64,000 bases of DNA from Schmidtea nova (Eukaryota), in NCBI GenBank assembly GCA_044892505.1, contig CM097882.1:434806001-434870000 (forward strand). The letters are read 5' to 3'. Every line of letters starts with the position of its first letter. The stretch's first letter is position 1. Below the pieces are notes generated by a model that saw nothing but the letters and a program-made list of their open reading frames with translations, ran no database searches and was not told where the DNA came from. Below are positions 27,387 to 58,107 of this stretch, piece after piece. Made by a program: the position numbers and the translations under genes.

Positions 27387-30154
27387 CAGGCCTGGCCAAC
27401 CCAAATCGCTCTGCGGGCCAACTTTTTTATCCAAAATTTTATGCGGGCTATATAATATACGAAAACCCCAATTTTTATTGAAATATTTGTTTGAATTATT
27501 TCAGTACATAGATTTATTTGAACCATTCCAAGAAAAACATCTATTTTTATATTTACACTAGATTTTTTTTATTGTTTCAAGAACATTTTTATTGAACCAT
27601 TTATTTTTATTATTTCACTACACTTAAGTATAATATTTATTAATGAGATGTTTGCTTTTCTTTGCGATCGCTCAATGCTTTTAAATCTACATCAATTTGG
27701 GTAGTTGCACATCGTAATTGGCTTTCAAGGTTTTCGTCTGTTAATGAAGCGCGAAATTTACTTTTGGTAAATTTCATTTTTGAAAAAAAGGCTTCACAAA
27801 CATATGTAGATCCGAAGGCGCTTACAATTTTTTGAGCGAATAATCTTAAGTTAGGATACCTTTCTGCTGTTATATACGTGTTGTAGAATTCGATTTTTGA
27901 TGTCGTCTTATGAACCTGCTTCAACTCATTGTTACACTGCAAATTAATTATTTCCATCTGTAAAGCTTCTGGAACAGTGAAAGCGTCAACTTGAAATGGT
28001 GAAGAAAATATCTCAAACGTTTTGTCATATTTTGTAAGTTCTGAGAAACGACGAGTAAATGCAGCTGAAAGTTTTATAATTTCATCAGCGTACTTTGCAA
28101 AATTAATAGCTTGACTGCTATTAAATTCTTTTAATAACGGAAAATGGTGAAGATTGTTATTTCGAAGTTGGGACTCAAATAAAATTAGCTTGGTTTGGAA
28201 TGCTTTGATATGATTACAAGCATCAATAATTAAATTATCTTGCCCCTGTAACTCCTTGTTTAGCTGGTTAATTTTTTCGGTTATATCTACTAAAAAACAC
28301 AGGTCCAACAACCACATATCGTCATTTAAATTTGAAACTGGAGTTCCCTCTTCAGCCATAAAATTTTCTATTTCCACCCGTAATTCAAAAAATCTTTTTA
28401 AACATGTTCCGCGACTCAACCATCTAACTTTGGTAAAATAGACAATATCGCCGTATTCCGAACTTAATTCGTCAAGGTATGCTCTGAACTTGCGATGCTG
28501 AAGCGCATGTGATTGATTATAGCTAACTGTTTTTATTACCACATCCATGACATGGTTCATGGACAATACCTGGGCACATAAATTTTGCTGATGTATCAAA
28601 CAGTGTATTACAAATATTTCACTGGGTTTAACAGATGTAGCTTCAAGTTCATCCATAAACAACTTTACGGTTCCTTTATTTTTACCAATCATAGCAGGCG
28701 CACCATCCGTTGTTAGTCCAGAAAGCTTCTCTAAATGTAAAGAATTACAGGATAAACATTTTTTTATAGCGTGGAAAACATCCTCTCCTCTAGTGGTGTC
28801 TTTCAAATTTAAAAGATTTAACATTTCTTATGTCACTCCGAAAGAATCGTTAACTCCACGAATAAATACAGCAAGTTGTGATGTATCTGAAATATCTGTA
28901 CTTTCGTCGAAAGCTAGAGAATATGCTTTGAATTGTTGAATCCGCTCTCGTAAAGTCACCACTATTTCATCCGAAATATCATTAATGCGACGACAAATAG
29001 TTTGACGCGACAAACTTATGCACGAAATCATTTTATGTTTATCTGGCATAACATCTTCTATAACAGCTGCCAAACATTCTTTTACAAATTCTCCGTCCGA
29101 AAATGGTTTCATTTTCTTAGCGATTAACATTGCGACAGAGTAGCTTGCTTTAACAATATTAGAAGGTAGTTGTAATGAAGAACTAAACATTTTCTGCTGA
29201 GATTTTAATTCGGATTTTAGCTCGGCCAATTTAATTTTTCTCAATTCACTATTAAATTTCACATACACGTCGTGTTTCGTTTCATGATGTCTTTTAACAT
29301 TGTATTCCTTAAAAACAGCTATTGTATCTCGGCAAATCAAACATGTTAATTTTGAGTACTACATTATAAAGAAATAATTTTCTTCCCAATGATCGCTGTA
29401 TTTTCTGTTTTCTTCTGAAACTCTTCTTTTTTTGGAATTCATTCTAAAGGCCATGTATAATTATTCAAAATAAGTGCATTTACTGTTACTTACTTATTTA
29501 TTTAATTTTTCTGGTATAGAAATATAATTAATTAGATTTTTTATATTACTTTTTTTGTGTTATATAATTTGATATTGTTTATCACTTAAAAATACGCCAC
29601 TTCATATCTTAACAAAAACAAAGCCAAACTAAAAAGGTTTTTCAATAATTGTCGCCATCTTTAGTTATATTTTTCTGGCAAAGCCTACTATATAAATATT
29701 TTTGAATTACTCGTTTAAATCTTTTACTTATGAATAAATATATATGCACGGAAAACGGATTTTTCTGCCAACTGAGAAAACTGATTTTTTCCAAAAAAGT
29801 ATACTGTGTGTCCATTTCATTACATAAAACAAAAATGTTTACAACAATTTTATTACACGTAAAAATATGCAATCAAATAAAAACCAATGAAGATTATGAA
29901 TATAAACTTTTCACAAAACAAAAATTATAATGAGACGGACTAAAAAACATAACAAAAACTTTTTAATATTGAATTTTGTAGTCAATTTTTTTCTAAAAAG
30001 TCTGTATTTAATAATTTGGGTAGATTTTGTAATATATTTATTTTTTTATAGATTCTGTAAAAAAATTTTACCGCGAATAATAATCATGCCACGGGCCGCA
30101 AAATATACACAAAGGGCCGCATGCGGCCCGCGGGCCGCGGGTTGGCCACGCCTG
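27387..30154 (-). mobile_element. Full-length hAT transposon, SPIN/Buster/Charlie (GTF2IRD2-like) group
   Basis: TIRs caggcctggccaacc / ggttggccacgcctg; 8-bp TSD gtatagac / gtatagat with central TA; 2768 bp. Confidence 0.95.
27640..29454 (-). pseudogene. SPIN-like hAT transposase with two in-frame stops
   Basis: CLICRDTIAVFKEYNVKRHHETKH, LAFDESTD, TTDGAPAM, HCLIHQ, VRWLSRG, FGSTYVCEAFFS; stops near 29360 and at 28828. Confidence 0.93.
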
Positions 30155-36210: not shown

Positions 36211-36780
36211 CAGGTAGTCCTTGACGACGGCTCGACTTACGACGGTTCGCACTTACGACCAAAATTATTTCCTAAAATTATTTTTCCCAATGGGCCTGAT
36301 TTTTGTTTCAAACCGAACTAAAAAATTAAACCAATTAATTTTCCTTAATTAAACACTATTAATTTTATAAGTTATCTACTATTTTAGTGTTTAACAACAA
36401 AAACAAATTTAGAATTAGTAAAAAATTAATAAAAAATTAAAATCAAAAAATTAAATTAGCAAGCCTTAAAAATATTCAGCACTTTTAATTTGCTTATCTA
36501 CAAATAATTTAAAAACAAAACGATAGCATAAATTTATCTGTCATATCAAAAATTTAAATAAAATTAAAAGACTATAAAAGGCCCAATTGAGTTAGCCATT
36601 TTAATTTTTTAAAAGTGAATAATTTTTTATCCCAAAAATGTCTGTGAATAATAGAAGTAGAAAAAATAAGAGAAGTGTTATAGATTTAGAAATGAAACAT
36701 AAGTTAATTAGGTAAAAAGGTGAAAGGCATAGCGCATGCCTTTAAACTATCCCATTCAACAATCTCAACTGTTGAGGTTC
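36211..36780 (+). mobile_element. 5' end of a pogo/Tigger transposon
   Basis: TA + caggtagtcc...cgacttacgac TIR; ATG at 36638, KRSVIDLEMKHKLI / IAHAFKLSHSTISTV (CENP-B/psq HTH). Confidence 0.75.
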
Positions 36781-37179
36781 CAAATATTTGTTATTTGCAA
36801 TCTCAACTTGTTATTTGGGTGGTTCCTATATAAATATCAAAAGACTAAACTTGTTTTCAAAATTTTATTAATTCAACAAAATTACTTTTTATTTCCTTTA
36901 CAATTAACTAGAGATAGTTCAAATTCTTTATTTAACAAATTGTTTTAAATCAGTTCTTGTAATTGAGCCTATTGGGTGAATGCTATATAGTGCGTGTTAA
37001 ATAATTTATTGTGGATCCAATATTCCTGATCCGGGTTTTAATAAGTTTTTCAAGATTGCCTTGAAAACTCAATTTGCGCTAATTTTAAATCTGGATTTTA
37101 CACTAGATTTTAAAGCTAGGATTTTTTTGGGCGTCTTTACTGATTTTTACATCAGTTTATATAGTAAAATTTGGTATGG

Positions 37180-37430
37180 ATTTTTATAAATAATTTAATT
37201 TCCGGTCTGATATTAAAATATTATTAGATTTAATTTTCAAATTATTCCATACTCTGCGATGATATTAAAATAATTATATTTCAATTTCCGTTCTTATCGT
37301 GATATTAAAATTTTCAAATTATTCCATACTCTGCGATATAATTATATTTTAATTTCCGGTCTTATCACGATATTAAAATTTCCAAATTATTTCGTACTCT
37401 GTGATATTAAAATATTATTTAGATTTAATT
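37180..37430. repeat. AT-rich imperfect tandem repeats in the 3' UTR region of element 2
   Basis: Recurrent gatattaaaa...caaattatt(c/t)c(a/g)tactctg and atttccg(g/t)tcttatc units. Confidence 0.7.
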
Positions 37431-37599
37431 ATTTTTAAATAACTGAATTAAATTATTTTATTTATTAATCTGTTTATTTTATATGTATATACAACTCATA
37501 AAATAAAATAATAAAAGGAATAAAATACACATCAAGATACACTAAAAGAAAACAATTGTTTGTTGAGAAATGTCACAATAATAAAATGTCACAATCATA

Positions 37600-39417
37600 T
37601 TAATTTTCTTGATTTCTGTGATGGGAGTTGCAATCATTATTGTGTGGCTTGGATTGGGGTTCTGTGTATTGGGATTCCGCGTAAATGTTGATCTTATAGC
37701 TGTTAGGCCCTGTCCTATAATATTTATTTAGGACAAATGCTTGGATGGGCTTCCCTTGATCATCCAACATTCCTCCCAGGGCCGTCAAAGTAATGTCCTC
37801 ATTACCTTTTTCATTCAGGACCATTTCAATTTCTTTATCCTTCAATTTCATTACTGTTCTCTTGAATCCTTTCTTGATAGCAAGATTTAGGGTATCATCT
37901 TCCTCAATTCGTCTTCCAAAATGGGTACATAATTGTTTTTCCGTTATCTCGTTTTGATCGGCGCCTATAATGAAGCTAGGTTCCTCATCCTCTTCTATTT
38001 CCATTTCAATGTTTGGTTCTTTTCCTAATTCGTCTTCTGCTTTTATTTTATTCTCCATTTCTTTTGTGACATCTTGCTCATCGTCTTCCTCCACTGAGAA
38101 ATATTCTTCGTCCGAATCTAAGTCGCAAATGTCTTCGCTTTCTTTGTATCTTTGTATCAGTTGCCGTTCGTTTTTAATCATTATTTGATTTTCCGGTGGT
38201 CCTTCTTCTTTTGTAATCATTAGTTCGTCATCACTATCTTCATGTATTGTTTCTTCCGTATCTGATTTTTCATCTTTTATCATACTTTCATCTTCACTTT
38301 CCTCCAACTCTTCCATAAATGATTTTTTGTTTTGCATCTGGTATAGATCTCCTTTCATTTCGATATCGTCTGTTATTGGTGTATCACTTTGTAACGATGT
38401 TGAAGCTCCTGAATTCCATTTTATTATAGGCTCCCATTTGTCTTCTACTATTCCATGTATTACTTTCAATATTGTTGTTGTTTTTCTGGCAGAAAATGGC
38501 TCACTTTCTAATAATGCTTCATTCAGTCTCTTATCTTTGTACCATCTCTTATGGTATTTAATCACTTGGTAAGCTAAGTTAGATAGCCTAATTTTAAGTG
38601 GATCTACGTTCTTTACGAATGAACACATAAATTTATCTCTGGCCATTTCTCTCATTCCTGCGATGTTGTCTAGACCAAATGTTAGCATTTTTAATTTATC
38701 TATCATGTCAAATCCATGATTATTTTTCCCCACAACAGCTTTCTGATATCCATTAGCGCCTGATACTCATCTTCATTTCCAACGATACTTTCTTTATTAA
38801 TCATTGTTTTTTCTGTGCAGAAGTTTTTTATTTTCGTTCTTGGGGTTATCTTTTTATTGTATATAATTTCACCGTTGTACTTTCTTATACATACTTCTAC
38901 TGGTCGCTTGTTGTCGTTTTTATCAATTGCAAATTTTGCATCCATGAACACAATTAGTTGGTGCCTTTCTTCTGTAGATAGTTCATTGTGTGTGAAAGAG
39001 ATTTTTTCATTTATCCAGCTTTGATCATACCAAGGTTTTGAAGGGATTGGCGGCATTGATTGGAATGGATTTGATATTAGAGGGATATAGAGTATCTCGA
39101 TTCCTGACACACGGTAAGTTGTTCATTTGGATTATGAGGTGATTAAAATCGTCTGGCATACTTCTGTTGTTTGTAATTGTTTTGATGATGATTGAACAAT
39201 TAATTGTTGTGATTATTGGTACTTTATGTTGGCAAATTGATACCTCGGTTTTTGTCATGTGGAATAGGATTCTATGTGGTAACTTTTTTCCTTCGATTAC
39301 CGCTTTGTCGACATTAAGATGTTTTTCAAATGTGCCGATTAGGTCTTTTAGTTTTGTTCGTCGGGCTTCATTAAATTTGATAATATGTAGTTCTTTTTCT
39401 TCAATTTCCACTCTCAT
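37600..39417 (-). pseudogene. Frameshifted accessory ORF with a REX4/ISG20-like DEDDh exonuclease fold (38460-38960), an acidic tract and an unknown C-terminal domain
   Basis: VFMDAKF..VCIRKYNGEIIYNKKITP..IKNFCTEKTMIN..IRKLLWGKII/GFDMIDKLKML aligns by eye with REX4 ALDCEM..VSIVNQYGKCVYDKYVKP..VTDYRTAVSGI..AEMLKGRILVGHALHNDLKVL. Confidence 0.7.
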
Positions 39418-39922
39418 ATCATTTGGGATGCATACTTGGTTTGGGAAGCTTCTGATTGTGATTGGATTTCAATCGGTACATATTTTGTTTTGTAGGGTTT
39501 TGTAAAAGTTTAGAGGGTGTTTGTTGATCATAGCCACATAGTTCATAGATCGAGAATAATTTGGTTCTGATTGCATTGTTAATTGAAGACACAAGAATCG
39601 GGATATTGATCGATAAGTCAGTAAACAATAAAACACAAAGAATATAGATTGATAATGAGATCGAGATATGATTTTACGACTTGATTTGTGATTGGATTGA
39701 AGATTGGAACGATTTGATTGGGAGTTGGTTTGATTGTTTTTGATTGTGCTGAGGACTTGATGTAAAACTGGCTTTATTGGTTGTTTGCCAAATGGGTGAC
39801 TCTTTTTTCTAAAAATAAAATGTAAATTTTTATGTTGAGCGCGTATTTCAGGTTTAACCTTATACGCTATTTTATAAATACAGATATATGTGATTTTAAT
39901 ATATATTATTGACCAATTTAAC

Positions 39923-40693
39923 TTATACCAATGTGGACCTCGTATATTCACCTGGTATATATTTACCCAAATGGAAATGCCCTACATTTCGGCTCCGATA
40001 CCGCTGCCTTTTCCATTTGTACTTTTTGTAGATTTGTATGCTAGTTACTAAAGCTAAGACTACTAATGTTATTACTGATGCTGTGATGATATAATAAGGT
40101 CAATGTGGCTTTTTATCCTTTTTTTGAAATGCTTGTAGTTCCTCTAAGTTATGTATAATTGTTGGTTTTCCTTGCTCTATTTTTATAGATTCTTGTTTTA
40201 GTTTTTGTTTCTTAGCATAGTATTGTTTTTGGAATTTTGTTCGTCTAGTGTTTGTTGGTATATGTGGTGTGGTATTTACTATATTATTTGATGTCGTTAT
40301 TTTTATATTTATTTCTTTTATTTTTGTGTTTTCTATTCTATCGGGTGTTGTTATTAGGTTTTTGGATAATTGTTCTGTTCTTATTTTTTTGCATATCCAT
40401 ATTGTTGTATCTGTGTTTCTTTGTATGCAGATTCTGTATGTTGTATTAGGTGTCAGTTTTGTGAAGTTAACATAGTTTCCTATTTTGATTTCGTTGGTTG
40501 TTCTATCATCTTTTTCTTTTATCATCTTTGGATTTTCGTCATCCGTTGTTTGCATGTATATGTCAATTACTCCTCTGTTTATGATAAGTACTCTAACTTC
40601 ATTTGTTGATATTTTTATTAATACTTTGTCAAATTCTATTCTTTCGGTTGAACTAGCAAATGTTATGATTGTTAAGAAGATAGCCGACATCAT
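39923..40693 (-). pseudogene. Type I membrane module (signal-like segment, FN3-like domain, Thr-rich stalk, TM, short tail) in frame with integrase
   Basis: MMSAIFLTIITFASS; FTKLTPNTTYRICIQ..WICKKIRT; after in-frame TGA 40100-40102: YYIITASVITLVVLALVTSIQIY-KK; stop 39923-39925. Confidence 0.75.
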
Positions 40694-40699
40694 TAGTTT

Positions 40700-43215
40700 G
40701 TTATGCGATCTTCGATTATATTTATGGGGTTTCTCTACCGTGACCTCTGTTTCTGCAAGTTTGCATCTGTTAACATGTACTACTATTGGGTCTTCATTTT
40801 TCTGCTTTTGTAAATGTAAATTCTCATTTATTACTTTTACTACTTCATATGGACCTTTTTATGGTCTTACTAACTTTGTTGTTTTTCCTTTTCCTACTTG
40901 TGGTGACATAAGTCTAACCTTATCACCTACTTTAAAGTTATGTGGTTTACTGTTTTTGTCATAGTCGGCTTTGTATTGTTCTTGTCTAAATTTGACTTTT
41001 AAGTTAGCTACTTTATACACTTCTTGCAGTTTTTCCTGCATTAGTGTGACATAATCGGGTGCGTCTAGATATTGTGATACTCGAGGTTCAAAAATTGTAT
41101 CTATCGGTGTTGCTGGTTCTCTTAAAAACATTAAATAATACGGTGAATACCCTGTTGTTTCGTTTGGAGTGATATTATGAATGTATGTGCATTGACTTAT
41201 GTATTCGTCCCAATCATTTTGATTTTTTCCTACAAAAACAGCTAGTCTGCTTAGTAATGTCCCATTAAATCTTTCTACTAGTCCATCCGTTTGAGGGTGA
41301 TACGCTGTTGTGTTGATCTTTTGCATGTTAAAAATATTAGCTACTCGTTTTATTAATTCACTAGTAAAATTTGTTCCTTTATCTGTTAATAATCTTTTGG
41401 GTGTGCCTATCTTGAAAATTATTTTTTCTATAAGCAATTTAGCAACTGTTTCTGCTGTTTCGTCTTTTGTTGGAAATGCTTCTGCCCATCTAGTAAAATA
41501 ATCACTAAATACTAGTATATGTTTATTCCCATTAATTGTAGTAGGTAATTTACATAGAAAATCCATTGCACATAGTTCCATTGGTGATGTTGTTGCTGGA
41601 ATGGGGTGTAACGGCGCTTTTGTTTTTGTACCTGTATTTTTTCTTGTTGCACATATTGTACACGCGTTACACCATCTCTTAACATCTTTCTTTAATTCTT
41701 CCCAGTAATATTTTGTAATAATCTACTTGCTGTCTTTCTAGATGATAAGTGACCTCCTAATGCTCCATCGTGATATTGTAGTAGGAGTATTTGTCTTAAT
41801 TTCTGAGGTACTACTATTAATTGCTTACCATTGAAATCTTCTATTACTACTAATTTCTTTGATATTTTATACTTTGAATTGTTTTCTTTTCTGATTTCAT
41901 TCCTTATTATACTGATCTCCGGGTCTTTCATCTGTTCCTCATATATATCGATTTGCTTTTCTGCTACTAGTGCAAATATTTCAAGTGCTCCTAATTCTGG
42001 TATTCTTGATAATGCATCTGCGTTTTTATTTATTCTACCTGGTTTATATATAATTTTTAGGTGCATGTCTTGTATTTTCATTGCCCATTTAAGTAATCTA
42101 CTTGATGTATCTTTATGTTTCCATAAGCCTTCTAATGGTTTATGGTCTGTTCTTATTATCACTTCAGTCCCATAGATGTATGGTTTGAATTGTTTTAGGG
42201 CGAATACTATTGCTTAACATTCTTTTTCTATTGTTGAATACCTCAGCTGTGCTCCTTTTAATGTTTTACTGGCATATGCTATTACGTAATTTTTCCCTTT
42301 CTCTTCTTCTTGGCCTAAGACTGCTCCTACGACTTTCCCGCTGGCATCCGTCATTACTATAAACTGTTTTTCGAAATCTGGGTATCTTAACACTGGTGCT
42401 GTTATCAATCTTTCTTTTAGTTTGTCGAATGCTTCTTGATGTTCTTTTGTCCACTTCTTTTGTATCTTGTTAACTTTATTGTTAATTTCTTGTACTATTA
42501 ACACGTCTTTGCATTCTCCTTTTGTTTTAATTCCCTTTGTTAGTTCTATTATAGGTGTTGCTATCTTTGCATAATCTTGTATGAATTTATGATAGTATCC
42601 TGTTAAACCTAAAACCCTTGTACTTGTTGTACTGTTTTAGGTATTGGGAATTTCTTTACGACTTCTATTTTTTCTGGATTTGGTTTTATCCCTTCTACTG
42701 TAACTATATGCCCTAAAAATAGTGCCGAAGACTCTGCCCATTTACATTTGGTTGGTTTAATTTTTATCCTTGCTTTTCTTAGTCTCTCAAGTACGTTTGT
42801 TATATCTTTTAGATGTTCCTCGAATGTCTTTGATGATATTAATATGTCATCCATGTATACTGCACAGTGTTGTACATTTATTAATATTGTGTTCATTAGA
42901 CGTTGAAATGTGGCTGGCGCATTAGTTAATCCGAAGGGTAATCGTGTGTACTCATATAAACCATCCTCAATAACAAATGCTGTTTTCTCCGCATCCCCTT
43001 CTTCCATTTGAATTTGCATATACCCCTTATTCGCATCAATGACTGAAAAATACTTAGCATCCCTAAGTTTATCGTATTGCTCTTGTGCTTTTGGGAATGG
43101 ATATGAATCTTTTACTGTTACACCATTTAATTTACGATAGTCAATGCACATTCTTATTTCTCCGTCTTTCTTTTTGACGGGTACAATGGGTGATGCCCAC
43201 TGTGACAATGCCTTT
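40700..43215 (-). pseudogene. pol: Element 2 pol (RT 42609-43205, RNase H ~41990-42500, integrase ~40760-41780)
   Basis: RMCIDYRKLN, PFGLTNAPATFQR, YMDD, TDASG, DHKPL, YHDGALGGH, AMDFL, LTDKG, VERFNG, KGPY. Confidence 0.93.
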
Positions 43216-43244
43216 ACGAAAGCAAGTCTCTGTAGCATCTTACT

Positions 43245-46012
43245 GCCGTACTATCAACACCGCAAACTCTCTTCCGGTACGTTGTAAAGTACGCCCTCTT
43301 TCGAACGAAAAACTAGATTTTGTTCGCTCCGAATTCGCTACTTTGTTGAACGAAGGCATTATAAAAAGATCTAAATCTCCATGGTCTTCACCACTTCATC
43401 TCGTACCAAAGAAAGACGGAACTTTCAGACCTTGTAGAGATTATCGTCGTTTAAATATGATTACGGTTCACGACTCATATTCTATGCCTTTAGTAAACGA
43501 CATTTTGTACAGACTTACCGAGGCCAAAATATTTTCAACTACCGACTTAGTTAAGGCCTATCACCAAATCCCAGTTAAAGAATCTGACGTGGAAAAAACC
43601 GCAGTTTTAACACCTATCGGACTTTTTGAGTACGTTTTCATGCCGCTTGGTCTTAGAAATTCCGCTCAAACCTTTCAAAGACACATCGACCATTTTTTAA
43701 TGGATTTACCATTCGCAATTCCTTATATTGACGATATCCTCATTGGTTCTAAGGATGCGGAAACACACAAAAAACATTTAGATGCAGTTCTTTGCGCACT
43801 TTCTTCCAATAACCTACAGATTAATTTAGATAAGTGTTTATTTTTTAAAGAAGAAGTCCGTTTTTTAGGTCACATTATCTCGGGCCAAGGCGTCAGTTCA
43901 CCATCTGACAGACTAGATACTATATCTAAGTTTCCTCTTTCACAAACTGTTACTCAACTTCGGAGTTTTCTGGGAACAGTAAACTATTGCCACCGTTTTA
44001 TTCCTAAAATTTCAGAAATTCTTTCACCTCTTTCTGGTTACTGTTCTAGACCAAAGAAATCTATAATTCCTTGGATCGATACTTCGTTGCTCGCTTTTGA
44101 GCATGCTAAAACAGCCCTTTCAAACATACAGACTTTGCATTATCCACGAGGAGATTTGCCATTACGTTTAACCACAGACGCGTCAAACATAGCAATCGGT
44201 GCCGTTTTGCACCAGATAAACGGTTACATCCCAGAGCCACTAGAATTTTACTCAAAGAAACTTACCTCACCACAACAAAAATATTCAGCTTTCGACCGCG
44301 AACTTCTCGCTATTTTCCAGTCGGTTAAACATTTTAAGCATTTACTCGAGGGCCGTCTTTTTAGCATCCATACAGACCATAAGTCACTTGTTTACTTGTT
44401 CTCAATGAAAGACCCTTCTCCGAGACAACAACGCCAGATTAGCTATAGTAGCGAATTTTCTTGCCAAATATATCACATCGCCGGCAGTGATAACATTATA
44501 GCTGATTGCCTCTCACAAAATGTAAACGCAATTATCCATTGTCCTTTATTTTCTATCGACGAACTCCAAAATAATCCTCCAGATGCCATTGATATTTCGA
44601 AATTTGGCGACAAACATATAATCAAAGACAAAATTCACTACGACTCATCTCTTCCTGGCACTCTTCGCCCAATCTTGAACGACTCCATGAGAAAACCGGC
44701 TTTTCTATCTATCCACAACGAGCACCACCCAGGTTCCTTAGCCACTTTTAATCTATTACACACGTGTGTAGTTTGGCCAAACATGAGACATGATGTTAAA
44801 CTCTGGGTTGCACAATGCATAGGATGCCAACGTTTTAAAATAATTAAGCACACAAAACCTCCAATAATTCATTATCCCACTGGCAACCGTTTCGAAAACT
44901 TACACATTGACATCGTCGGCCCAGTCCCAAGTGACTGCGGTTTTTCTTACTTAACCATGATCGACCGCAAGACTCGTTGGTTCGAAGTCATTCCTTTACG
45001 CACCATTTCTTCTAACACTATCGCAACTTCGCTAATTCAAAATTGGATTTCACGATATGGAGTTCCCAAGTCGATCATCAGTGATCGCGGAACACAGTTT
45101 GAATCTAACTTATTTCAAGCTTTGACCGCTAAACTTGGGATACAACATCTTCGTACGACCACATATCATCCACAAACAAACGGGTTAGTCGAACTTTTCC
45201 ATCGTACTTTAAAAGCTTCTCTTGGCATTCTTTCTGAACAACAAGGTTGGACAAAGGTTTTACCTTTCGTATTATTAGGTTGGCGAAATACACCTTCTAG
45301 GACTACAGGATCATCACCTGCTCAATTACTTTTCGGTACAAACACATCGTTACCCGGTCAACTTGTCGACTTTGATAACTCTCCTACTTTGGAAGATCTC
45401 GCGATTGCCAGAGACCATTTTTTATCAATCGACACTAATCCTGAATTCTCTTCCGCGACCACCTATAAACCTTACATTCCAAAAACATTCGAAAAGGCAT
45501 CACACGTCTATATTAGAAATATAACTGATGCAAGTTTAAAGCCAAGATATTACGGACCTTACAAGCTCGTCGAGATTAAAGAAAACAACGCGAAAGTGAT
45601 CGTTAACGACGCTACACAAACATTTAACCTCTGCCGTCTTAAACCAGCTTTAGTTTTGCTCGATGATGAACCTCCATCTGACAATTTCTCGACCCAAACC
45701 GATATAATCCCGAACTCTCACATAAACGATAATGACCCTATCAATTCCACTGAGGACGATCTTTCCAACAACTCACTTTCATACCCGATTGTTCAAATAT
45801 CAGACGCAGAAAACAAAATTACGGAAAAATCTGAATACATACCGTTTATCCCAGAACCAAATGACGTACTTCGTTTACCACCCATTTTGAGGAAAGCAAA
45901 TCAAACACAAAATAAACCAAAGTCCGTCACTTACAACAAATGGGTTCGTGTCCGTTCTATTAATCAAAAACCGGATTCACCAACCAGACTAATAAAAATC
46001 TATTCAAATTAA
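43245..46012 (+). CDS. pol: CsRn1-like Ty3/Gypsy pol (RT-RNaseH-INT), open frame but 5'-truncated (no gag or protease)
   Basis: SPWSSP, PLGLRNSAQTFQR, YIDD, TDAS, DRELLA, DHK, HNEHHPG..CIGC, HIDIVG, ISDRG, VELFH, YYGPY. Confidence 0.93.
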
Positions 46013-46212
46013 CTGCATCACTTTCCACCAAGTTCTATTAGTTTTTTTTCTCGGTTTCCTAAATTTCTTTCGCAATTCTTTCTCAGGTTCTTCCATTTCA
46101 TTCACAAATCTTTCCAAATACTTTCTGGACACTACAAAATACCATATTATTATATACTAAACTACTATATTACGTATCTACATTATAGTATTTCAAAATG
46201 TCCTCCGCATCT

Positions 46213-46290
46213 TCCTATGGGGGCTGATGAAGTGGTCTAGAAAGCCGATATCGAAGATTCTCTCAAATGATATTAGATTTTCAACAAGTC
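46213..46290 (+). promoter_or_regulatory. PPT-like G-run and start of a truncated 3' LTR
   Basis: tcctatgggggctga then TGAAGTGG at 46228; same arrangement as 3247-3263. Confidence 0.5.
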
Positions 46291-46536
46291 AAATGACGAT
46301 TTACCTCCAAAAACAATCTTAGTAAAAAAATAATATAAAATTTTAAACTGTGATAAAATTGTAAAACTTTTATTAATATCCTTGTACAAAAACATTTTGT
46401 TTTAATTAAAGGTATAAATATTGGGATTTTTAAAATAGATAGTTTGAGAAGTTTATTCAATTCGTTAAATTTTTTGAAATAGAAATTTTTGAAATTTATT
46501 ACATTTTCAAAGATTATAATATTAAAAGCATTAATT

Positions 46537-46888
46537 ATGATTCTTTTATGCTTCTTTATCAGTGTTCTGCTACAGACAAACAACTAATGAATGTCCATGT
46601 TTTATATCGACATGGCGATAGAGCACCTGTTATTATATATCCAACTGATAAGAATAGGGAAGACAAGTGGCCCAATGGGATTGGAGGATTAACAAATCGA
46701 GGAATTATGCAGCATTTTAATTTGGGCATGTGGCTACGACGTCGTTACAATGACTTCCTTGGGCAATATTTAAACTATTCATTAATAGAGCATTAATGTC
46801 TGCCGAATCAAATCTAGCAGGTTTATTCAACAACCTATCTAAAGAAGTGATCAACGGTCTAAAGTGGCATCCTTTCCCGATTCAAACT
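46537..46888 (+). pseudogene. Intronless fragment of a histidine acid phosphatase (ACP2/ACPP-like)
   Basis: Signal-like start, VLYRHGDRAP, WPNGIGGLTNRG, LGMWLRRRY, RALMSAESNLAGLF, WHPFPI; frameshift and internal deletion. Confidence 0.85.
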
Positions 46889-46961
46889 CGATCAAGACAT
46901 TTGTGTTTATCACCACCAAAATTTGCCTTTCTTCATTCCTTTGGATTTTTATTAAACGTAT

Positions 46962-48137
46962 TTATTTATCATGTTTTGCCGTAATCAGGTATTTGGCTAC
47001 AAACGGGCATAAACATGCTAGTAATTTATATGAATTTCCGAATACTTGTTTCAGCTGTCGTAGTGATTCTAAGGAAGAACAAATCATTTTTAGTAAAAAC
47101 AACCGTATAGTAAATTCCCAAAATTGTAGAGAACATGTTTCCAAGGACTGCAAAATATCCCCATATACTATATAATACTTTATATACTACTTTTTTGAAA
47201 TATTCTTTTGATAACACCACGTCAGAGTTGTAATTTCCTCCATAACTTCCTTCGATAACTTTGTTCACCATTATTGACAGTATTCCTTCTTTTTCGTTTG
47301 GGAATAACATGTGTTTTCTTGCACTTTCTATAGCTTCTCTCGTATATATGCCATTGCTATCCATATCGTTGATTTCTTTAAACTCCAATCTTTTTTCAAG
47401 CTCTATGAGTTTTAATTTGAGGGGTTTCATCGCCTCTTTCCTATCTGACATAGATATCCACATTTCGTCATTTATCTTATATAATGGATTAGTACATTTT
47501 TCTATTTTTCTTGGTACATAAGTTTTTTCTGTTAGTATTCTCGTAATCGGTTGAAGGTATACTCTTTCTCCTTTGTATACTACAGGTAACTCGTTTGTGC
47601 ACTGATTGTTTGTTGCTAATGATACACTAACAGGTTTACATTGGAATGTCTGTATTACTTCCCCTACTATTCTAGCAAATGTTCCCTCTTCTGAAAAGAT
47701 TATTGGGGCCATTAAATCTTGGTTTGTTACTGCGACTGCCATTTTTGTTCTTAATATTTCTCGGTTGAGTTTGCAATCGCTCATAATTGTTGATTGGTAC
47801 ACTTTATCTAGTTGCACTAACTGATTATGATAGAAGAAATCGATTTTATTGTTAAAATACGAAGCGAGTTTGACGTTGAATTTGTTTACTTTCTGTTTTG
47901 CATCTTTAACTTCTTCCTTACTTACGTATATCCCTTCATAATTAGTTCGTATTATTTCCTTACCGCATTTTACACTTTTTCCTTTACTAACAAACCTCAT
48001 TTCTTCATTTTCGGATTCTGACATATATATTGTTGGTGTATCTTTTTCTTGTACAATTGTTGTTTTTCTTTTCTGATCTCTTACTCTTTTAGAATCTACT
48101 TCTGTGAACTGCTTCCCTTTAATTTCTCTAAATTCTC
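46962..48137 (-). pseudogene. env: Chuvirus-like class III fusion glycoprotein (env-like), C-terminal two-thirds with TM
   Basis: CGKEIIRTNYEGIY..YFNNKIDFFY..DCKLNREIL..GTFARIVGEVIQTFQCKPV..CTNELPV..YLQPITRIL..WGYFAVLGNMFSTILGIYY; frameshift near 47080. Confidence 0.8.
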
Positions 48138-48265
48138 GTTTCAAAAATTTAGGAAACGAGCGAATTTACAAAATGTAAAAATCTCTGGAGAGGCAGGCAG
48201 TGCTGATAATAAAGCTGCTGAGGATTTTGTAGCTAAATTCGATGATTTCCTTAAAGAAGAAAATC
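48138..48265 (+). mobile_element. Internal pogo/Tigger transposase fragment
   Basis: FQKFRKRANLQNVKISGEAGSADNKAAEDF matches the Tigger/pogo motif RFKKR..L.NVK..GEAASAD. Confidence 0.75.
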
Positions 48266-49400
48266 TATTTATTACCCAACTCATCCATCCTTCTTCGGAT
48301 TCTTCTCTTTCTACTCTTGTTAAACGGTTTATTTCTACTGCTTGTCTTTGATTGATGTTACTTATAGTTTGATTTTCTCTGGTGAGCTCAGTTATAACTC
48401 TTTTTTGCTCTTCTGTTCTATGCAATTGTTCAAAACAGTTGTTATAACTCTCTGATAATAGAATTTGTCTTTCCGCTAGTTGGTTTTGTAATGAGTTGAC
48501 TGTTCGTACTAGTAAATCACATTGCGCTTTCCATCTCATGGCCATAGTTATTTCAGTTGTTTCGTCTTGTTCGTTCATTTCTAAATTATATACATCAATT
48601 ACTTTCTCGTTTTCTCTTTTTATGTATTTTATAATATCGATACCCATACTATTACGGTAATGCTTTATTATTTATACTATTATTTACAGTCATAATCCGC
48701 CCCTATACTCTCATTACTTTCCTTTCGTCGTATCTCTCTTCATCTTCTATTTGCTTCCAAAATTCTTTACCTTTCGTTCTTCTTTGAAATTCTTTCTGTA
48801 TTTCTTCTGGTATTTCTATTCTTTGATTCGTAATTTTAATATCTGGCCATTGTATGGCTGTCGCTTTATTTCTCCTCCTGTACATCCAACATACTATCAT
48901 GCTCGTTGTCAGTATTCCACCTGTTATTAATATTCCCATACTAATTACTCCTATTACTATTTTACCAGTGTTTGTTTCTTTGGTTTTATTCTGATTCACC
49001 CTTATCTCATATTTGTCTTGGATTTGAGCCTCCGGCTTCCTCTCCTTCTGCGCTTGGCTCTTGACTTTGTTCATTACTTCTTGTGTAGACCAATGGTGGT
49101 TTAGTATTTGTTTGGCGTAGTTTTCCGTTGTTCGGTTTCTCATGTTTCCTGTTTCGATATGTTGATTCAGTTTCTCCGAGATCTGGTATGATCCGCACTC
49201 TGTCTCCTCTGAATTTTTTCCTGTAAAGGTACATATCGCGTATGTCTCATTTACCTCCTTTTGCCTTAATTCGACTTTTCCCTTGTTCCCTGTTTCTTTA
49301 CAATGGGTTAGGTTATCTTCTTCTACTTCTGGGTTATGTTTTATCCAACATACTCCTTTCACAGTCTGTTTGAGTCCTATTAATGTTAAATTATTATTTC
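48264..49400 (-). mobile_element. Fragment of a sister copy of the giant element (last FN3-like repeat, TM, tail, spacer and coiled-coil ORF)
   Basis: Collinear with ~56177-57310; proteins 48703..49362 and 48264..48578 closely match 56622..57280 and 56137..56493. Confidence 0.93.
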
Positions 49401-49953
49401 CTAGCGATTTTTCTTTTGAGCGCGTTATTCACTAATATATAACGAACAACTGTTTTATAACTAAGTTTTATTAATATATTACAAATGCTGGGTTCATGGA
49501 GGGGTTAGATGGAAAATGCTCTAACAATGACTAGGGATCCCTCATCCATGATCATGCATAAAATTGCAATTCTACACTCAAGCGCCCTTGATTATTTCCC
49601 TATATAATCAAGTTGGTGATGCGCAGGGTGGTTAAACAATGATGGGCAGGTGAGCACTATCGCTAGTACTACTCCCCATTTATGTTTACGGGTTCATCGC
49701 TGCCGTTAGAAGGACTTATGCTTTAATCATCTACTTATGTATTCCGCGTTAATCTTTCAGAAAATTTATTTTTATCATTGCTCAGTCTGCGAGAAGTATT
49801 TCAACGAATGCTCGCTTAATGATTTAATTATCTCTATTCGATATTTTGTAAAATGAATTTATACTTTTGTTCTATCTTTATCTAATCATTGGTAAAGTTA
49901 ATTAAATCAATTTAAATGAACGATAAAATTCTTAAGCCAATACAACAATTTAT

Positions 49954-50550
49954 TTAATTTTTAATTAGTTCGGTAAAAACTCCCGCCGGAGGAAAAATCT
50001 CCGTCAATAATGCCTCCTCGGTCATCTGATGTAGACCATCTACTTGGCTTTGTAATCGCTGGGCAAATAATTTTCTCCGTCTCCGCCGTTTCTGCCCAAT
50101 GCGCTTGCGTTTCTGGTGCGCATTTGCCGATGAGGTGGTTGAATTTGCTGCAGGAGCGGTCTCATTCCGACTTTCGATTAGATCGGCGACATCCGTGCCA
50201 ATAGAGGTTACCGTCTTCTTTTCTGATGTCCAAGCTTGATACGTAACCGGACGGATTTGCTCTCTGAGCTCTTTCTCAATATATGAGGCCGTTACGGAAT
50301 GGAGGCATTTTCGGAGTTCTATCTTTGTAGCCTCCCATTCCTTTTGATAATCGGCTGCCGTCTGTTGGGCGCGCTCGGTTTTACTGATTTGCTCCTTCAT
50401 TCGGGCCGGAGCAAACCAGCTTTTGCGCAAGTATGCAATCTGTGCCTCTGCTTTGATCAATTGTGCCTTGAGGAGACCCAATTCCTTGTCCTGGGCTCTC
50501 CGAATCCGCCACATCTTTTCCAATTCTCTCTGCATCAAATCGGTGTTCAT
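49954..50550 (-). CDS. Hypothetical coiled-coil protein with basic NLS-like tract, inside the putative LTR
   Basis: 198-aa ATG ORF; KRKRIGQKRRRRRK; TAG-a-ATG context. Confidence 0.55.
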   Translation of the reverse strand: MNTDLMQRELEKMWRIRRAQDKELGLLKAQLIKAEAQIAYLRKSWFAPARMKEQISKTERAQQTAADYQKEWEATKIELRKCLHSVTASYIEKELREQIRPVTYQAWTSEKKTVTSIGTDVADLIESRNETAPAANSTTSSANAHQKRKRIGQKRRRRRKLFAQRLQSQVDGLHQMTEEALLTEIFPPAGVFTELIKN

Positions 50551-50727
50551 TCTATAATTTGTTTAGGATATTTACTCTATGATTTAATTATATAAAAATT
50601 AAAATCTGATCATAGGATTATTAGGTTACGAATATGAACTATTAAAATGCGAAACAAAACTCAAAAACAAAAATTCACTAATGAACTCTAATATTTTAAC
50701 ACAATTTCAACATTTGTTAATCAGTTT

Positions 50728-51204
50728 TCATCTCCGAAACAAACTATGCAATTCACTGTTAATCGGTTTCTGACGAAGACGAGCCCAAGAGAATGAGGGT
50801 TGTCCTTTCTGGCACTCCTTGCCGAACGGTTTTCGTGGTAAGAATTCGTACAGACCCAGTTGGCATAGCTCTCGACGAGGGATATGCCCCCAATAAATTA
50901 CACGGCTTGTCCGTCCATCTGTGTCCTTGATCAGTACGACAAGTCGGCCAAATTTGTTTGAGTACGGCCTTTGGGAAATCGGCCAGTTCGGTCCTCCTCG
51001 ATAGAGTATTTTATCGTTTCCTCCGTCCCAGATGGAAAACGGGCACTTTCGACCAAACCCTTGCCGCCACTTGTATGCTTGGGCGTTAATGGTCCGCAGA
51101 ATTGGCTGGGGCAACTCCTTGAGCTGATTGGCCCATCCATTCGCCCTGTCCTCCTTTCCTGAGTTCCGAATCCGCATTAATCTTTCGTTCAACGATGTCC
51201 GCAT
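50728..51204 (-). CDS. Hypothetical basic protein inside the putative LTR
   Basis: 158-aa ATG ORF, relatively GC-rich island flanked by AT-rich spacers; CAG-ATG context. Confidence 0.5.
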   Translation of the reverse strand: MRTSLNERLMRIRNSGKEDRANGWANQLKELPQPILRTINAQAYKWRQGFGRKCPFSIWDGGNDKILYRGGPNWPISQRPYSNKFGRLVVLIKDTDGRTSRVIYWGHIPRRELCQLGLYEFLPRKPFGKECQKGQPSFSWARLRQKPINSELHSLFRR

Positions 51205-52841
51205 CTGTCATTTTATTTTATTCAATAAAGAGTTGAATGTAAATTATATTTAATCTCCATCGTTTTAGTTAATTCCATTTCGTGATTAAACCATTGCCGC
51301 GATATACCACGGTCGAATAAGATATTTGTTTTCCCTGCGCCATGTACGACGATCAGGATAAGATTAATCTGAGTTACCGCGCTATGTACAGCGATCGGCA
51401 TAAAAGTATTTTTAGAATTTACAGATTTTTAGTTTTATTTAGAATGGAATTTAAAGTATTTTTAGAATGTACCAATTTTCAGTTTTACTAATCTCTGTCA
51501 TGCAGTTGCGATATCCTGTACCTTGACCTCAATTGAAAATCATCAGTTTGATCGATTTACTTGGAAAATTTTTATAACTTGTCATGCTACGCCGGCTCTC
51601 TCGTCCTCAAATTTAACCTCAGCGTGTCAACCCATTTGTCTCGGGTACCTGACACTTATCGGGTACTTTACCCCTTCCTGGTATCTCCTTAGACCTTCTC
51701 TACCGCCGCTGCGCTACGTCCCCTGTACAACCAAATGATGACTTTTTACCTATCGCCAGAAAACCGTCTGGACGTATTCGCATTATTGATATTTCGTGAC
51801 TGAAAATTTACTCGACTAAATAAGCATCAAAATTCTCTAATCTCGCTGATAAATATCTGGTTAACTTTGAATGATTTACTTTAATTGTTTCAACTACCAA
51901 ATTAAAAATGAAAACCAAAACAATAAAAAGGTTGAACCGCCATGTGAGACCGTGAGGCCCCACAACGACGACTCGGACTCCCTCGCCGCGTGAGCAGCAT
52001 AGGAAGTATAACTATATGCATTAAAAATAATAAAAAAAATAAAAAATAAAAAATAACGTTTACATATAAGATTTTAATTAAATAAAAATCATGGGTACAT
52101 CATATAAGATAACATAAAAAAAATTACTTCCGTACTTGAATGTGTGGTTCCTTGTATGAAATTCGGTTCTTTCAAAAAATTTACTCAAATCAAAGTTTAG
52201 TCTTGATTGTGAGTGAAAAGTAAACGTCTAAGTCTGTGATTTTTGGATCGGTATTTATACTGATCCGTCTGGTTGGATTGACCAATCAGGATCAGGCCGT
52301 CCTTCAAAGTATTTTTATTATTTTAATCTAACCTAAACATTATTTTGTTTCCTTTTCCGGTTTCTCGCTGGGTGGTCCTGATTTTCCAAGTAATTAATTA
52401 ATTATTTGTACTATTATTTTATTTAATTCTATTTTTTCTTATTTCAGGCCCCCTTTTGCGGTTGTTTACCGGTTTATTTTCAAAATTTCCTTTTACTGAA
52501 AATTTATCAATTATTATTTGTCGTTTTATTGTTATTTTTAATTTGTTTTTCTTGCTATTTTTATTTTTATTATTTCTTTATTGTTTCATGCTTTTGTTCG
52601 TTTTATTGTGTTTTTAGGTGATTTGGCGGGCCCAACATCACCCGGGGACCCCTAAAATTGCGTCCCGCAATTAATTATACATAAATACTTATATTCATCA
52701 TCCATAAAAAGTTTTATAAAGTTATACATGCAAGAAAGAAAATCACATAAGGTGATCGAATTTATACATATCATAAAGTTTGTCACTAAATAGTCAAAAT
52801 GTAATGATTTGTCACAATAGTTCGATAAGTTATCATAATGT

Positions 52842-53411
52842 TTATACAATTTGTTCGATCGTCTGGCTCGCTTGGGGTTGAGTTCGGGTCCTCTCGTTGA
52901 TTATTTGTAGCTCGTAGTGGGTTTGAATGTGGTTGAGATGGCTCCTTATTCGTCTTTGAGCTCGGTTATCTCGTCTGGAGGTTTGGTTGTAGATTTTCTG
53001 CTTTTGTTTTAGGATTTTTATTCTATATGAGGCAAGCAGGATTGTGATTGCGATGATAGTTGTGCTGACTGCTAGGATTATGATGATTGCTATGATCCAT
53101 TTTCCTTGATATTCTATTTCAGCTTGGGATAGGCTTTTTATGGGTTCTCTACCTTCTTTCAGGATTTTTCGGGTTTCTTCTAGTTTCAGTTGTTGTTTAT
53201 CGAAGATTTGTTGGATTTGATGGTCTTGATTGTGAGGGTATTTCTGTCGGAATTCGTTGATTTCTTTAATTACTTCTTCGATTAGGCTGTCTACTTTCTG
53301 ATAGGTTTTGTCGGGTAGAACTCGTAATTGGGTTTCGGTTAGTTGTAGATCTTCTCTCTGTAGGGTAATGGTTGTTAACCATAGGAGTGTTGCTATTGCG
53401 AGCTTTCTCAT
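52842..53411 (-). CDS. Small type I membrane protein (signal peptide, helical ectodomain, TM, basic tail)
   Basis: MRKLAIATLLWLTTITL; WIIAIIIILAVSTTIIAITILLASY followed by RIK. Confidence 0.7.
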   Translation of the reverse strand: MRKLAIATLLWLTTITLQREDLQLTETQLRVLPDKTYQKVDSLIEEVIKEINEFRQKYPHNQDHQIQQIFDKQQLKLEETRKILKEGREPIKSLSQAEIEYQGKWIIAIIIILAVSTTIIAITILLASYRIKILKQKQKIYNQTSRRDNRAQRRIRSHLNHIQTHYELQIINERTRTQPQASQTIEQIV

Positions 53412-53486
53412 CTCTTTTATACATCGGTCAATACAGCTTGACACTTTTTATTTTACATAATTTATTTACACTTGGTTTCCGCACAT

Positions 53487-54548
53487 TTATACAAGGGTTT
53501 CGTTGGGTTCGTGACAACCTTCGTCTTGAGGTTCCACTTGATTTATGGGGAGTGGCATCCATATTACCGTGCTCCTCCACATTTCGACTTCTTCTCGGTA
53601 TGTGTGGGATATCTGGATCTCTTCATCTAATAAGTATTCCAGATAGTTCGCCTGTTCTGTTAGGGTTTCAATTTGCTTTTCTAGTTCTGCCAATTTTTTC
53701 TCTCTCTCTTCCTTCTCCATCATTTCGGTTACTGCTGCTGTGATACTTGTTTCTTTTATTGGTATTGGTTTTTCTGCCAACTTCTTTCTCAGTTCTTCGT
53801 TTTCTTTTGTCAAATTTGTTATGTTCTCTTCATAGCTCTGCCTCGTTTCTTCCAGTCTTTCTTTAGTTCTTTTTAATTCTATTTTCTTCTGGGTGATCAC
53901 TCCTTGATATCCATTTATGTCTCTTTTCATGTTTTCCTCCTTGTGATTCCACATTCCGGTCAGCATACCTTTTAATTGTTCTTGATTGGCTAAATCTTCT
54001 CCCATTCTTTGTACTTGATAAGTTAATTCTTTTATTTTCTTGGCTTGTTCTCTGATAAATTGTTGTCTTTTCTTACTCCATACTTTATTTGACGCTTCTT
54101 GACTGATCTTTTGCCCTAATTCCTCTTTTAATTCATCGATCTCTTTAAACAGTTTCCAATCATCGCTGTACGCTGTTCGTTCTATTATCTCCCTTGCTTC
54201 CTTGTAAGAGTCTTCTGCCTCTTTCTTCCAATATCTTGCTTGTTCTGTGATTGACTGAATCTTATGGTCTGTTTTTATTTGTTGTCTATCCCTATCCTCT
54301 CGTCGCTCTTTCATCATCTCTTTGTAGTATTCGTTTTGTTGTCTTAGCAGTTTGTAGACTTCTTCTATTTTTTCTCGACTTCTTTGATTCGTTTTCTCGG
54401 CTTCTCTTAGTGCTTGGGTTTGTCTTTCCAATTCCTCCTGTTTTCGATAGTAGGCATGAATCCATATCCCAATCCGCTCCATGTGATTTCTGATCATTTC
54501 GTCTTGATGTACTGTTACTTCTTGTAAGGTTACTTCTATATTTCCCAT
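53487..54548 (-). CDS. Long coiled-coil protein, 353 aa
   Basis: E/K/R/Q-rich heptad-like sequence; uninterrupted ATG ORF starting MG. Confidence 0.75.
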   Translation of the reverse strand: MGNIEVTLQEVTVHQDEMIRNHMERIGIWIHAYYRKQEELERQTQALREAEKTNQRSREKIEEVYKLLRQQNEYYKEMMKERREDRDRQQIKTDHKIQSITEQARYWKKEAEDSYKEAREIIERTAYSDDWKLFKEIDELKEELGQKISQEASNKVWSKKRQQFIREQAKKIKELTYQVQRMGEDLANQEQLKGMLTGMWNHKEENMKRDINGYQGVITQKKIELKRTKERLEETRQSYEENITNLTKENEELRKKLAEKPIPIKETSITAAVTEMMEKEEREKKLAELEKQIETLTEQANYLEYLLDEEIQISHTYREEVEMWRSTVIWMPLPINQVEPQDEGCHEPNETLV

Positions 54549-54667
54549 TTCTATAATTACAGATAAAACGAATATTTAATCATTTTTTATTTTTATTTTT
54601 ATTGTTTTTGATTATTTGTTAATTCATATTGTTTCTATACATTTTATTTACATGGTTACTTCCTTCA

Positions 54668-56044: not shown

Positions 56045-56136
56045 TTTCTACAATAATATATACATTCGACTTGTCATTTATTTTTGGTTTTTCTTGTTTT
56101 TATTTTTACATATTTACAATTTTCCGCTTTATTTAT

Positions 56137-56493
56137 CTATGGCTCATTCGTTGAATCTGGTTCCGCTTCGTTGTTTAGTCTATTTATTACCCAACTCATC
56201 CATCCTTCTTCGGATCCTTCTCTTTCTCCTCGTGTTAAATGATTTATTTCTATTGCTTGTCTTTGATTGGTGTTGCTTATTGTTTGATTTTCTCTGGTGA
56301 GTTCAGTTATCGCTCTTTGTTGTTCTTCTATTCTGTGTAATTGTTCGAAACAATTGTTATAACTTTCTGATAATAACATTTGTCTTTCCGCTAATTGGTT
56401 CTGTAATGAGTTGACTGTTCGTACTAATAAATCACATTGTGCCTTCCATCTCATAGCCATAGTTATTTCAGTTGTTTCGTCCTGTTCGGTCAT
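56137..56493 (-). CDS. Small coiled-coil protein, 118 aa
   Basis: ATG ORF conserved in the sister copy at 48264-48578. Confidence 0.7.
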   Translation of the reverse strand: MTEQDETTEITMAMRWKAQCDLLVRTVNSLQNQLAERQMLLSESYNNCFEQLHRIEEQQRAITELTRENQTISNTNQRQAIEINHLTRGEREGSEEGWMSWVINRLNNEAEPDSTNEP

Positions 56494-56621
56494 TTTCTAA
56501 ATTATATACATCATTTACTTTGTTTTTCTAGCTTTTTACAAATTTTTTTATAATATCGATACCCATACTATTACGGTAATGCTTTGTTATTTACACTATT
56601 ATTTACAGTCATAATCCGCCC

Positions 56622-58070: not shown

Positions 58071-58107
58071 CCATTTTGAACTCTGCGGTAGGCTTCTGGT
58101 TCGCCTT

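Follow-up and report, generated by a model that had tools for sequence, protein, structure and literature searches.

A disarmed ISG20-type nuclease fold kept under purifying selection in the accessory ORF of a Schmidtea nova Gypsy element

The element and its copy in the window

The window, by which the whole stretch of 64,000 nucleotides analyzed is meant, hosts a broken LTR retrotransposon, in which Gypsy reverse transcriptase (RT), RNase H, integrase and fusion-glycoprotein pieces identified by Pfam on the minus strand lie upstream of an accessory reading frame, ORF2. Features are given below in window positions.

36770..37770, minus strand: 3' LTR; a polypurine tract precedes it, at about 37771-37777
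37600..40044, minus strand: entire ORF2, overlapping the polyprotein tail in the +1 frame; about 640-900 codons from stop to stop in sister copies
37600..38427, minus strand: acidic tail of ORF2, running into the 3' LTR; a G-[NY]-E-D-I-T-L-T motif close to its end is conserved
38428..39017, minus strand: ISG20/REX4-like DEDDh fold with the site D/K/K/F/T, a pseudo-exonuclease; profile hits in two window frames
38479..38496, minus strand: ExoIII, F-S-A-R-K-T, with Phe (38494-38496) at the His position and Thr (38479-38481) at the Asp position
38695..38697, minus strand: Lys at the ExoII acid position
38934..38942, minus strand: ExoI, D-A-K, with the first Asp kept (38940-38942) and Lys at the Glu position (38934-38936)
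39048..39525, minus strand: double-stranded beta-helix (DSBH; cupin / 2OG-oxygenase-like) domain before the nuclease fold, from model, Foldseek and VIA
39940..40858, minus strand: polyprotein tail past the integrase, with a hydrophobic segment, a weak fn3-like match (Pfam, E 0.095), a membrane-helix-like stretch and a basic tail
40862..43214, minus strand: Gypsy pol (RT, RNase H, integrase), split over several frames (Pfam)
43208..46901, no strand assigned: 3.7-kb insert foreign to the element, with an unrelated Gypsy pol on the plus strand and a histidine-phosphatase piece
46901..48134, minus strand: env-like fusion-glycoprotein segment of the same element (Monjiviricetes_fusion, E 2e-56)

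In the window ORF2 is a pseudogene. The DSBH domain is interrupted by an in-frame stop (39469-39471) and a frameshift near 39104, the nuclease-like domain by a frameshift near 38715. The copy is an older one, carrying the 3.7-kb insert and an env-like segment 92.5% identical to that of a sister copy, the similarity stopping at 48134. An earlier note on this DNA, made from the sequence alone, had described the nuclease-like domain as retrotransposon-borne, and it does sit behind a Gypsy integrase, in a 3' accessory ORF. The unrelated Gypsy pol found in the insert is 944 aa long, and the histidine-phosphatase piece resides at 46443-46796. The polyprotein region 40100-40858 (minus strand) combines a signal-like segment of hydrophobic residues, a domain weakly resembling fn3 and a stretch resembling a membrane helix, and may represent a second membrane protein beside env.

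Sister copies are made up by an LTR, one long frame, ORF2 and the 3' LTR. The long frame encodes, in order, a zinc knuckle, a Bcl-2-like domain, an env-like segment, protease, RT, RNase H and integrase. Three sampled copies measure 13.9, 14.0 and 16.1 kb from LTR to LTR, and are Ty3/Gypsy LTR retrotransposons by their PR-RT-RH-IN order, TG..CA LTRs, PBS, PPT and short target duplications. LTR pairs are 97.6-99.9% identical and flanked by 4-bp target duplications in all three, which indicates that the families were active recently. The gag-Bcl-2-like-env-pol arrangement of the first ORF, detected by Pfam in the three copies with Bcl-2 hits below the curated cut-off, is that of Burro elements. 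The length is under the 30 kb of Burro, and the element is therefore called Burro-like only.

Identity with the giant Burro elements was considered and dropped, LTR mapping giving about 14 kb, and the TRAF ORF belonging to a neighbouring element. The latter, about 30 kb long, lies in part within the window, at 49485-64000, and has 3.15-kb LTRs that are 100% identical, gag-env-pol and many 3' ORFs, among them a TRAF gene (zf-TRAF + MATH) at 54668-56047. Its RT is 52.5% identical to that of the ORF2-bearing family, and a DSBH-DEDDh ORF was not found in the part within the window. A coding stretch of about 1.1 kb at 48264-49389 recurs at 56179-57299 (spacing about 7.9 kb, 78-91% identity), and links the accessory ORFs of the neighbour with the region beside its LTR. 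Further away, we take 11371-12423 to be a mariner-like transposase frame, and 27640-29358 a hAT/SPIN-like transposase remnant.

Fold and altered site of ORF2

Fold searches were carried out with the model of a natural sister copy, not with the window copy. The AF2 model has a mean pLDDT of 61.6, the other four models ranging from 40 to 47. Foldseek retrieved ISG20 first (E 2.3e-6), a DEDD-fold match of the kind the earlier note had proposed to look for with AlphaFold and Foldseek, followed by ISG20L2 (E 4.1e-6). ISG20 is also the top match by VIA (Z 14.3, rmsd 3.0, 159 residues aligned), the next row scoring 11.8. The single sister-copy sequence matches ISG20L2 weakly (E 0.003), and a profile of nine subfamily rows, run against 177,635 PDB sequences, retrieved at E<=1 only ISG20L2 (9e-6) and ISG20 (5.7e-5). 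With Pfam, neither the window pieces nor the sister-copy domain gave a nuclease hit. The fold of this ORF2 domain is of the ISG20/REX4 DEDDh type, and the family assignment made from the window letters is upheld by Foldseek, VIA and the nine-row profile alike.

The 160 residues before the nuclease fold gave a model with a pLDDT of 81.6, which matches by VIA a prolyl-4-hydroxylase (Z 9.7, rmsd 3.6, 145 residues aligned) and cupins (Z 8.0-8.7), and by Foldseek cupins (E about 4e-4). As modelled, the domain is a DSBH fold. In an alignment of 12 DSBH rows His89 and Glu144 are invariant, His89 being the sole invariant His; the alignment across clades is weak (Prob 5, E 0.007), and did not establish a metal triad of the His-x-Asp/Glu...His kind. 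The acidic tail on the other side of the nuclease fold contains 19-29% D+E in six sampled dead-clade copies. It has no Pfam hit, the partner upstream of the nuclease fold being the DSBH domain. Hydrophobic motifs flanked by acidic residues, which presumably resemble SUMO-binding motifs, occur in the tail of 4/6 dead-clade copies, and are missing in subfamilies G and H.

The motifs F-M-D-A-K, D-M-I-D-K-L-K-M-L (K at 38695-38697) and E-P-F-S-A-R-K-T (38479-38502) are located on the minus strand where they had been placed by the first reading of the window. The claim that three acids had all been changed to Lys is not supported. In ExoIII it is Phe that aligns with His, and Thr with Asp; the third Lys (38482-38484) lies one residue before, at a non-catalytic position. 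The same gapless register, with both replacements, was returned by MAFFT, hhalign, and HMMER against ISG20L2, where ExoIII falls in a weak second stretch. A gapped register placing the Lys on the Asp is possible, as some subfamilies read S-V-E-D there, but under either register the third Lys is not conserved, the nine subfamily rows reading K, I, E, I, L, D, D, E and D in this column. DEDDh enzymes begin the ExoIII helix after the residue following His, and in the sister-copy model the helix begins directly after the Ser that follows Phe. When the site D/K/K/F/T is set against ISG20 (D11/E/D94/H/D154), four of five catalytic residues are replaced. Loss of any single Asp is reported to abolish the exonuclease activity of ISG20 (PMC7756014).

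Conservation, intact relatives and exchange of the 3' end

Divergent subfamilies were gathered from the same genome, 150 of about 1,800-2,060 candidates being scored per search, and counts are accordingly lower bounds. One natural copy per subfamily was aligned, for a total of 9 subfamilies which are 44-67% identical to the first. All nine rows carry D/K/K/F/T (D26, K28, K108, F175 and T180 being among the 38 invariant columns), with ExoI reading D-x-K and ExoII Lys throughout, and the set of D-E-D-D acids with the general-base His is absent from all of them. Conservation of the Lys residues across family copies, a point raised in the earlier note, holds for those of ExoI and ExoII (9/9), and fails for the third (1/9). 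Of 26 Lys columns only three are invariant, the two swapped metal-ligand sites and the Lys of G-K-I, the last present in intact relatives as well. Both Lys codons are used at both swapped sites. At each site a single G-to-A transition suffices to turn the Glu of the intact relatives into Lys, so that the direction of the change is cheap, and it is the retention of Lys that is evidence of selection.

Synonymous sites are largely saturated across the 36 subfamily pairs (pS 0.64-0.87, pN 0.08-0.39); dN/dS is 0.06-0.27 in the 14 unsaturated pairs, for which dS is computable. Constraint in the DSBH domain is the same as in the nuclease fold. These values and the five invariant site residues bear out the view that the changes had been selected rather than produced by random decay, for the family at least, the window copy itself being broken. 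The family keeps an ISG20-type fold without its metal ligands under purifying selection, and is a DEDD pseudonuclease in this sense. The 30 closest copies, in which D-x-K is found in 29/30 and the ExoII Lys in frame in 28/30, are about 96% identical; they were discarded as evidence of selection, and divergent subfamilies taken instead.

Intact forms of the domain reside in the same genome. A Pfam scan for RNase_T gave 88 matches from 139 candidates; among 18 examined, 17 are copies of other Gypsy families and one is an unrelated cellular-type nuclease. The 17 Gypsy copies feature D-A-E, G-H-D-L-x-x-E and, where complete, H-[ST]-A-L-E-D, a few having decay changes, and a further genome search added more intact families. 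The related retrotransposons with the D-E-E-H-D site have an RT 54-56% identical to that of the window's family, and carry the ORF after the integrase, in the same polyprotein layout. Family copies keeping an intact DEDDh site, which the earlier note had set against its own reading, were not found within the family (D/K/K/F/T in 9/9), while these more distant elements do keep D-E-E-H-D. Profiles of altered and intact nuclease domains align end to end (hhalign, Prob 99.5, E 1e-22); the substrate-loop H-G-I of the intact relatives is missing from the altered domain. A like-sized domain lies in the like place in intact families, and shares I-P-N and K-L/F-x-E motifs. The N-terminal domain profiles match weakly (hhalign, Prob 5, E 0.007), and the two domains are likely homologous, judging from size, place and motifs. 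The ESM Atlas matches of the intact N-terminal domain are headed by signal peptidase I clusters; a single cupin cluster, at rank 16, is no more than a lead.

The altered-domain profile found 117 proteins among 1.84 billion representatives. Among the 116 public proteins aligned are forms with an intact site (DEEHD/DEDHD), a large number of altered ones, and REX4-like proteins of the cellular type. A first quick tree held 110 of 130 rows, 20 having been left out for low coverage or, in the case of four proteins, for multiple repeats. In it, 43 altered rows make up a single branch (SH-aLRT 97) within the intact element-type group. In a second, pruned quick tree of 88 rows, from which 9 long or odd and 13 partial rows had been dropped, the 28 altered rows stay on one side of a branch (94), and long-branch attraction may contribute to their grouping. 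The nearest intact relatives of the altered clade are element-type, not cellular REX4-like, proteins. Grouping of the D/K/K/F/T rows with the intact families of the genome was rejected by an AU test (p 0.019, under a simpler model and for a group named after the tree was seen), which suggests that the loss of catalytic residues is old. The ExoI Glu position is Lys or Arg in 19 of the 28 altered rows of the pruned tree. Many members of the wider altered clade have lost even the first Asp and the Lys, and 9/28 rows lack K/R. Only two public proteins (P0001, P0002) have the full D/K/K/F/T site, and two fragments D/K/K; word-seeded protein searches recovered P0001 and P0002 only. Two viral and two metagenome scans returned no locus for the public homologs, and 20 of these, when looked up, had no informative names. 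The homolog P0049, which has an altered site, carries a C-terminal RING finger.

ORF2 is locked in frame to the polyprotein. The spacer that separates the DSBH domain from the basic tail of the polyprotein ranges in length from 388 to 826 nt; even so, ORF2 is in the +1 frame for 17 of 20 distinct spacer lengths, and at 45 of 48 distinct anchor-bearing loci (five rows lack the anchor). Shuffled 110-codon spacers were stop-free in 1-4 of 5,000 trials. An in-frame ATG is missing from the overlap in 4/8 subfamilies, one of which has none before the DSBH domain. Frame-lock and missing ATGs together point to entry into ORF2 by frameshift or splice, as far as sequence can tell; no conserved slippery site and no convincing splice acceptor were found in the ORF1/ORF2 overlap. 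A candidate programmed frameshift or splice site would fall just past the membrane-helix-like stretch (window 39525-40044, minus strand).

The 3' end has a history of its own. Subfamilies A, B and C share 85-99% nucleotide identity over gag-env-pol, and integrase pS is as low as 0.044, as opposed to about 0.8 in ORF2. In global alignment, identity among the three is 58-74% over ORF2 and the element's 3' end, and by blastn only the last 110-240 nt or so of the LTR align between subfamilies. Diverged ORF2 and most of the LTR are found on near-identical backbones (integrase pS 0.04-0.33) at several loci (L081, L082, L083 and L084; upstream, L103, L115 and L116). Near-identical gag-env-pol joined to deeply diverged ORF2 and LTR indicate that the 3' cassette has been exchanged by recombination.

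Possible role and relation to known systems

The leading reading, given an even chance of being right, is that ORF2 would be a non-catalytic binder of nucleic-acid ends serving the element, in which a cupin-like domain and a disarmed ISG20-type fold are kept together under purifying selection. The ancestor likely had an active nuclease in a similar ORF, disarmed once, long ago. Two-metal hydrolysis by DEDD enzymes is established chemistry that needs the metal-ligand acids, and with one acid left it should not be able to run. The two Lys amines are likely in the former metal positions, where they would hold the terminal phosphate, probably of the element's own RNA or cDNA. Ends so bound could be shielded from host 3'-5' trimming, or held for processing. 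The invariant D/K/K/F/T in nine rows and two public proteins, and the intact relatives at the same position, are consistent with end binding. A precedent is PXL, which is reported to keep one of four acids, to lack nuclease activity and to bind nucleic acid (PMC13659232). Against end binding, the bulky Phe at the His position or the loss of H-G-I could close the pocket, and the altered domain shows no overall gain in basic character over its intact counterpart (net charge +2 to +10 vs. -1 to +9, so that charge does not separate them). The pocket may be dispensable for some members, to judge from the 9/28 wider-clade rows without K/R, and the structural picture derives from a model of moderate confidence (pLDDT 61.6).

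Other roles have to be weighed. ORF2 might be a regulator matched to its own LTR, either a transactivator or an anti-silencing factor, whose dead fold would read RNA or DNA specific to the element, while host chromatin machinery would be recruited by the acidic tail. ORF2 and LTR travel as one cassette, the tail has acid-flanked hydrophobic motifs in 4/6 copies, and accessory genes of foamy viruses lie, as ORF2 does here, between pol and the 3' LTR. Yet ORF2 and LTR are adjacent, and physical linkage alone accounts for their joint travel; the motifs fail in subfamilies G and H. Such a regulator is rather unlikely, and at the binding step is compatible with the end binder. An unlikely role is also that of a protein decoy or scaffold, mimicking a DEDD protein of the host, whether REX4/ISG20-like or a partner in piRNA trimming, and tying up its cofactors, with the pocket unused. 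The altered clade has long branches and varied site residues, the polyprotein has another host mimic in its Bcl-2-like domain, and the DSBH resembles the N-terminal domains of vaccinia C16 (Z 7.4, within the range of common arrangements). Strict retention of D26, K28 and K108 is, however, hard to explain with an unused pocket, and the nearest intact relatives are not of the cellular REX4-like type.

The invariant Asp and two Lys, with His89 and Glu144 in the DSBH, would also fit an enzyme whose chemistry has been rewired to work with one metal or none, assisted by Lys, or one in which catalysis takes place in the DSBH domain. This is quite improbable, as the 38 invariant columns contain neither a His base nor a new conserved Cys/His cluster, and the DSBH has a single invariant His in an alignment that is weak across clades. 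Neutral decay of a captured host nuclease would agree with the broken window copy and with Glu-to-Lys being a single transition. It is refuted for the family by the low dN/dS, by the open frames of most scored copies and by the frame-locked spacer, and holds true only of the window copy after insertion; as a general account its likelihood is next to nil. More speculative than the end binder itself is the suggestion, tentative and on the unlikely side, that ORF2 is the retrotransposon's own counter-defence factor, an ex-nuclease 3'-end clamp matched to the LTR, with which it would pass as a cassette from one near-identical gag-env-pol backbone to another. The clamp would shield element RNA from piRNA and exonuclease surveillance, or block such surveillance, and the intact relatives would represent the ancestral, cutting state.

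Retrotransposons with a DEDD nuclease, and pseudonucleases encoded by host genes, are already known; what appears new, no example in print having been retrieved by the searches, is the dead ISG20-type form fused to a DSBH domain. Literature searches found no retrotransposon-borne dead ISG20-type domain, and Burro supplements or Repbase-type annotations may already note ORF2. Human ISG20 and ISG20L2 (PDB 1wlj, 7yw5) are the best structural and profile matches (17-20% identity), and differ from the ORF2 domain, in which four of five site residues are replaced, and which is fused to a DSBH, followed by an acidic tail and carried by a retrotransposon. Planarian Burro are described as giant Gypsy elements of over 30 kb (PMC6431247), with one polyprotein including, as here, gag, a Bcl-2-like domain, a mononegavirus-type env, protease, RT, RNase H and integrase. 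The element described here is in contrast about 14 kb long, and no MATH, BIR or ankyrin hit was found in the sampled ORF1s. The available text of the Burro literature (PMC6431247, PMC8532177, PMC11410931) names no exonuclease for these elements.

Bdelloid Juno/Vesta LTR retrotransposons and Terminons are reported to carry a DEDDy ORF3, RNase D-like and with intact residues (PMC5408684, PMC6431247), an extra DEDD-fold ORF on an LTR element as is ORF2. ORF3 is described as reading DEED, as do the intact relatives in the S. nova genome. ORF2 is instead ISG20-like DEDDh, dead, and joined to a DSBH domain. It does not belong to the RNase D-like DEDDy subtype, the top matches being DEDDh and the ExoIII of intact relatives having His. 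Catalytic activity of the extra DEDD ORFs of retrotransposons is, according to PMC5408684, yet to be shown. A single genome with many intact and selectively kept dead copies, in similar two-domain ORFs, is a natural paired control, which asks whether the element requires cutting or binding alone. Should the dead form turn out to protect element RNA, or to act on its own LTR, it would give an animal LTR element a means of counter-silencing based on a protein, which is rare. Among host pseudonucleases, Exuperantia, PML PXL, Maelstrom and EXD1 similarly have a DEDD fold without the acids, reported to bind nucleic acid (PMC13659232, PMC5408684). As described, PXL keeps one of four acids, the ORF2 fold one of five catalytic residues; all four are, unlike ORF2, host genes, and of separate origin. 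In Exuperantia and PXL the fold pairs with a SAM-like domain.
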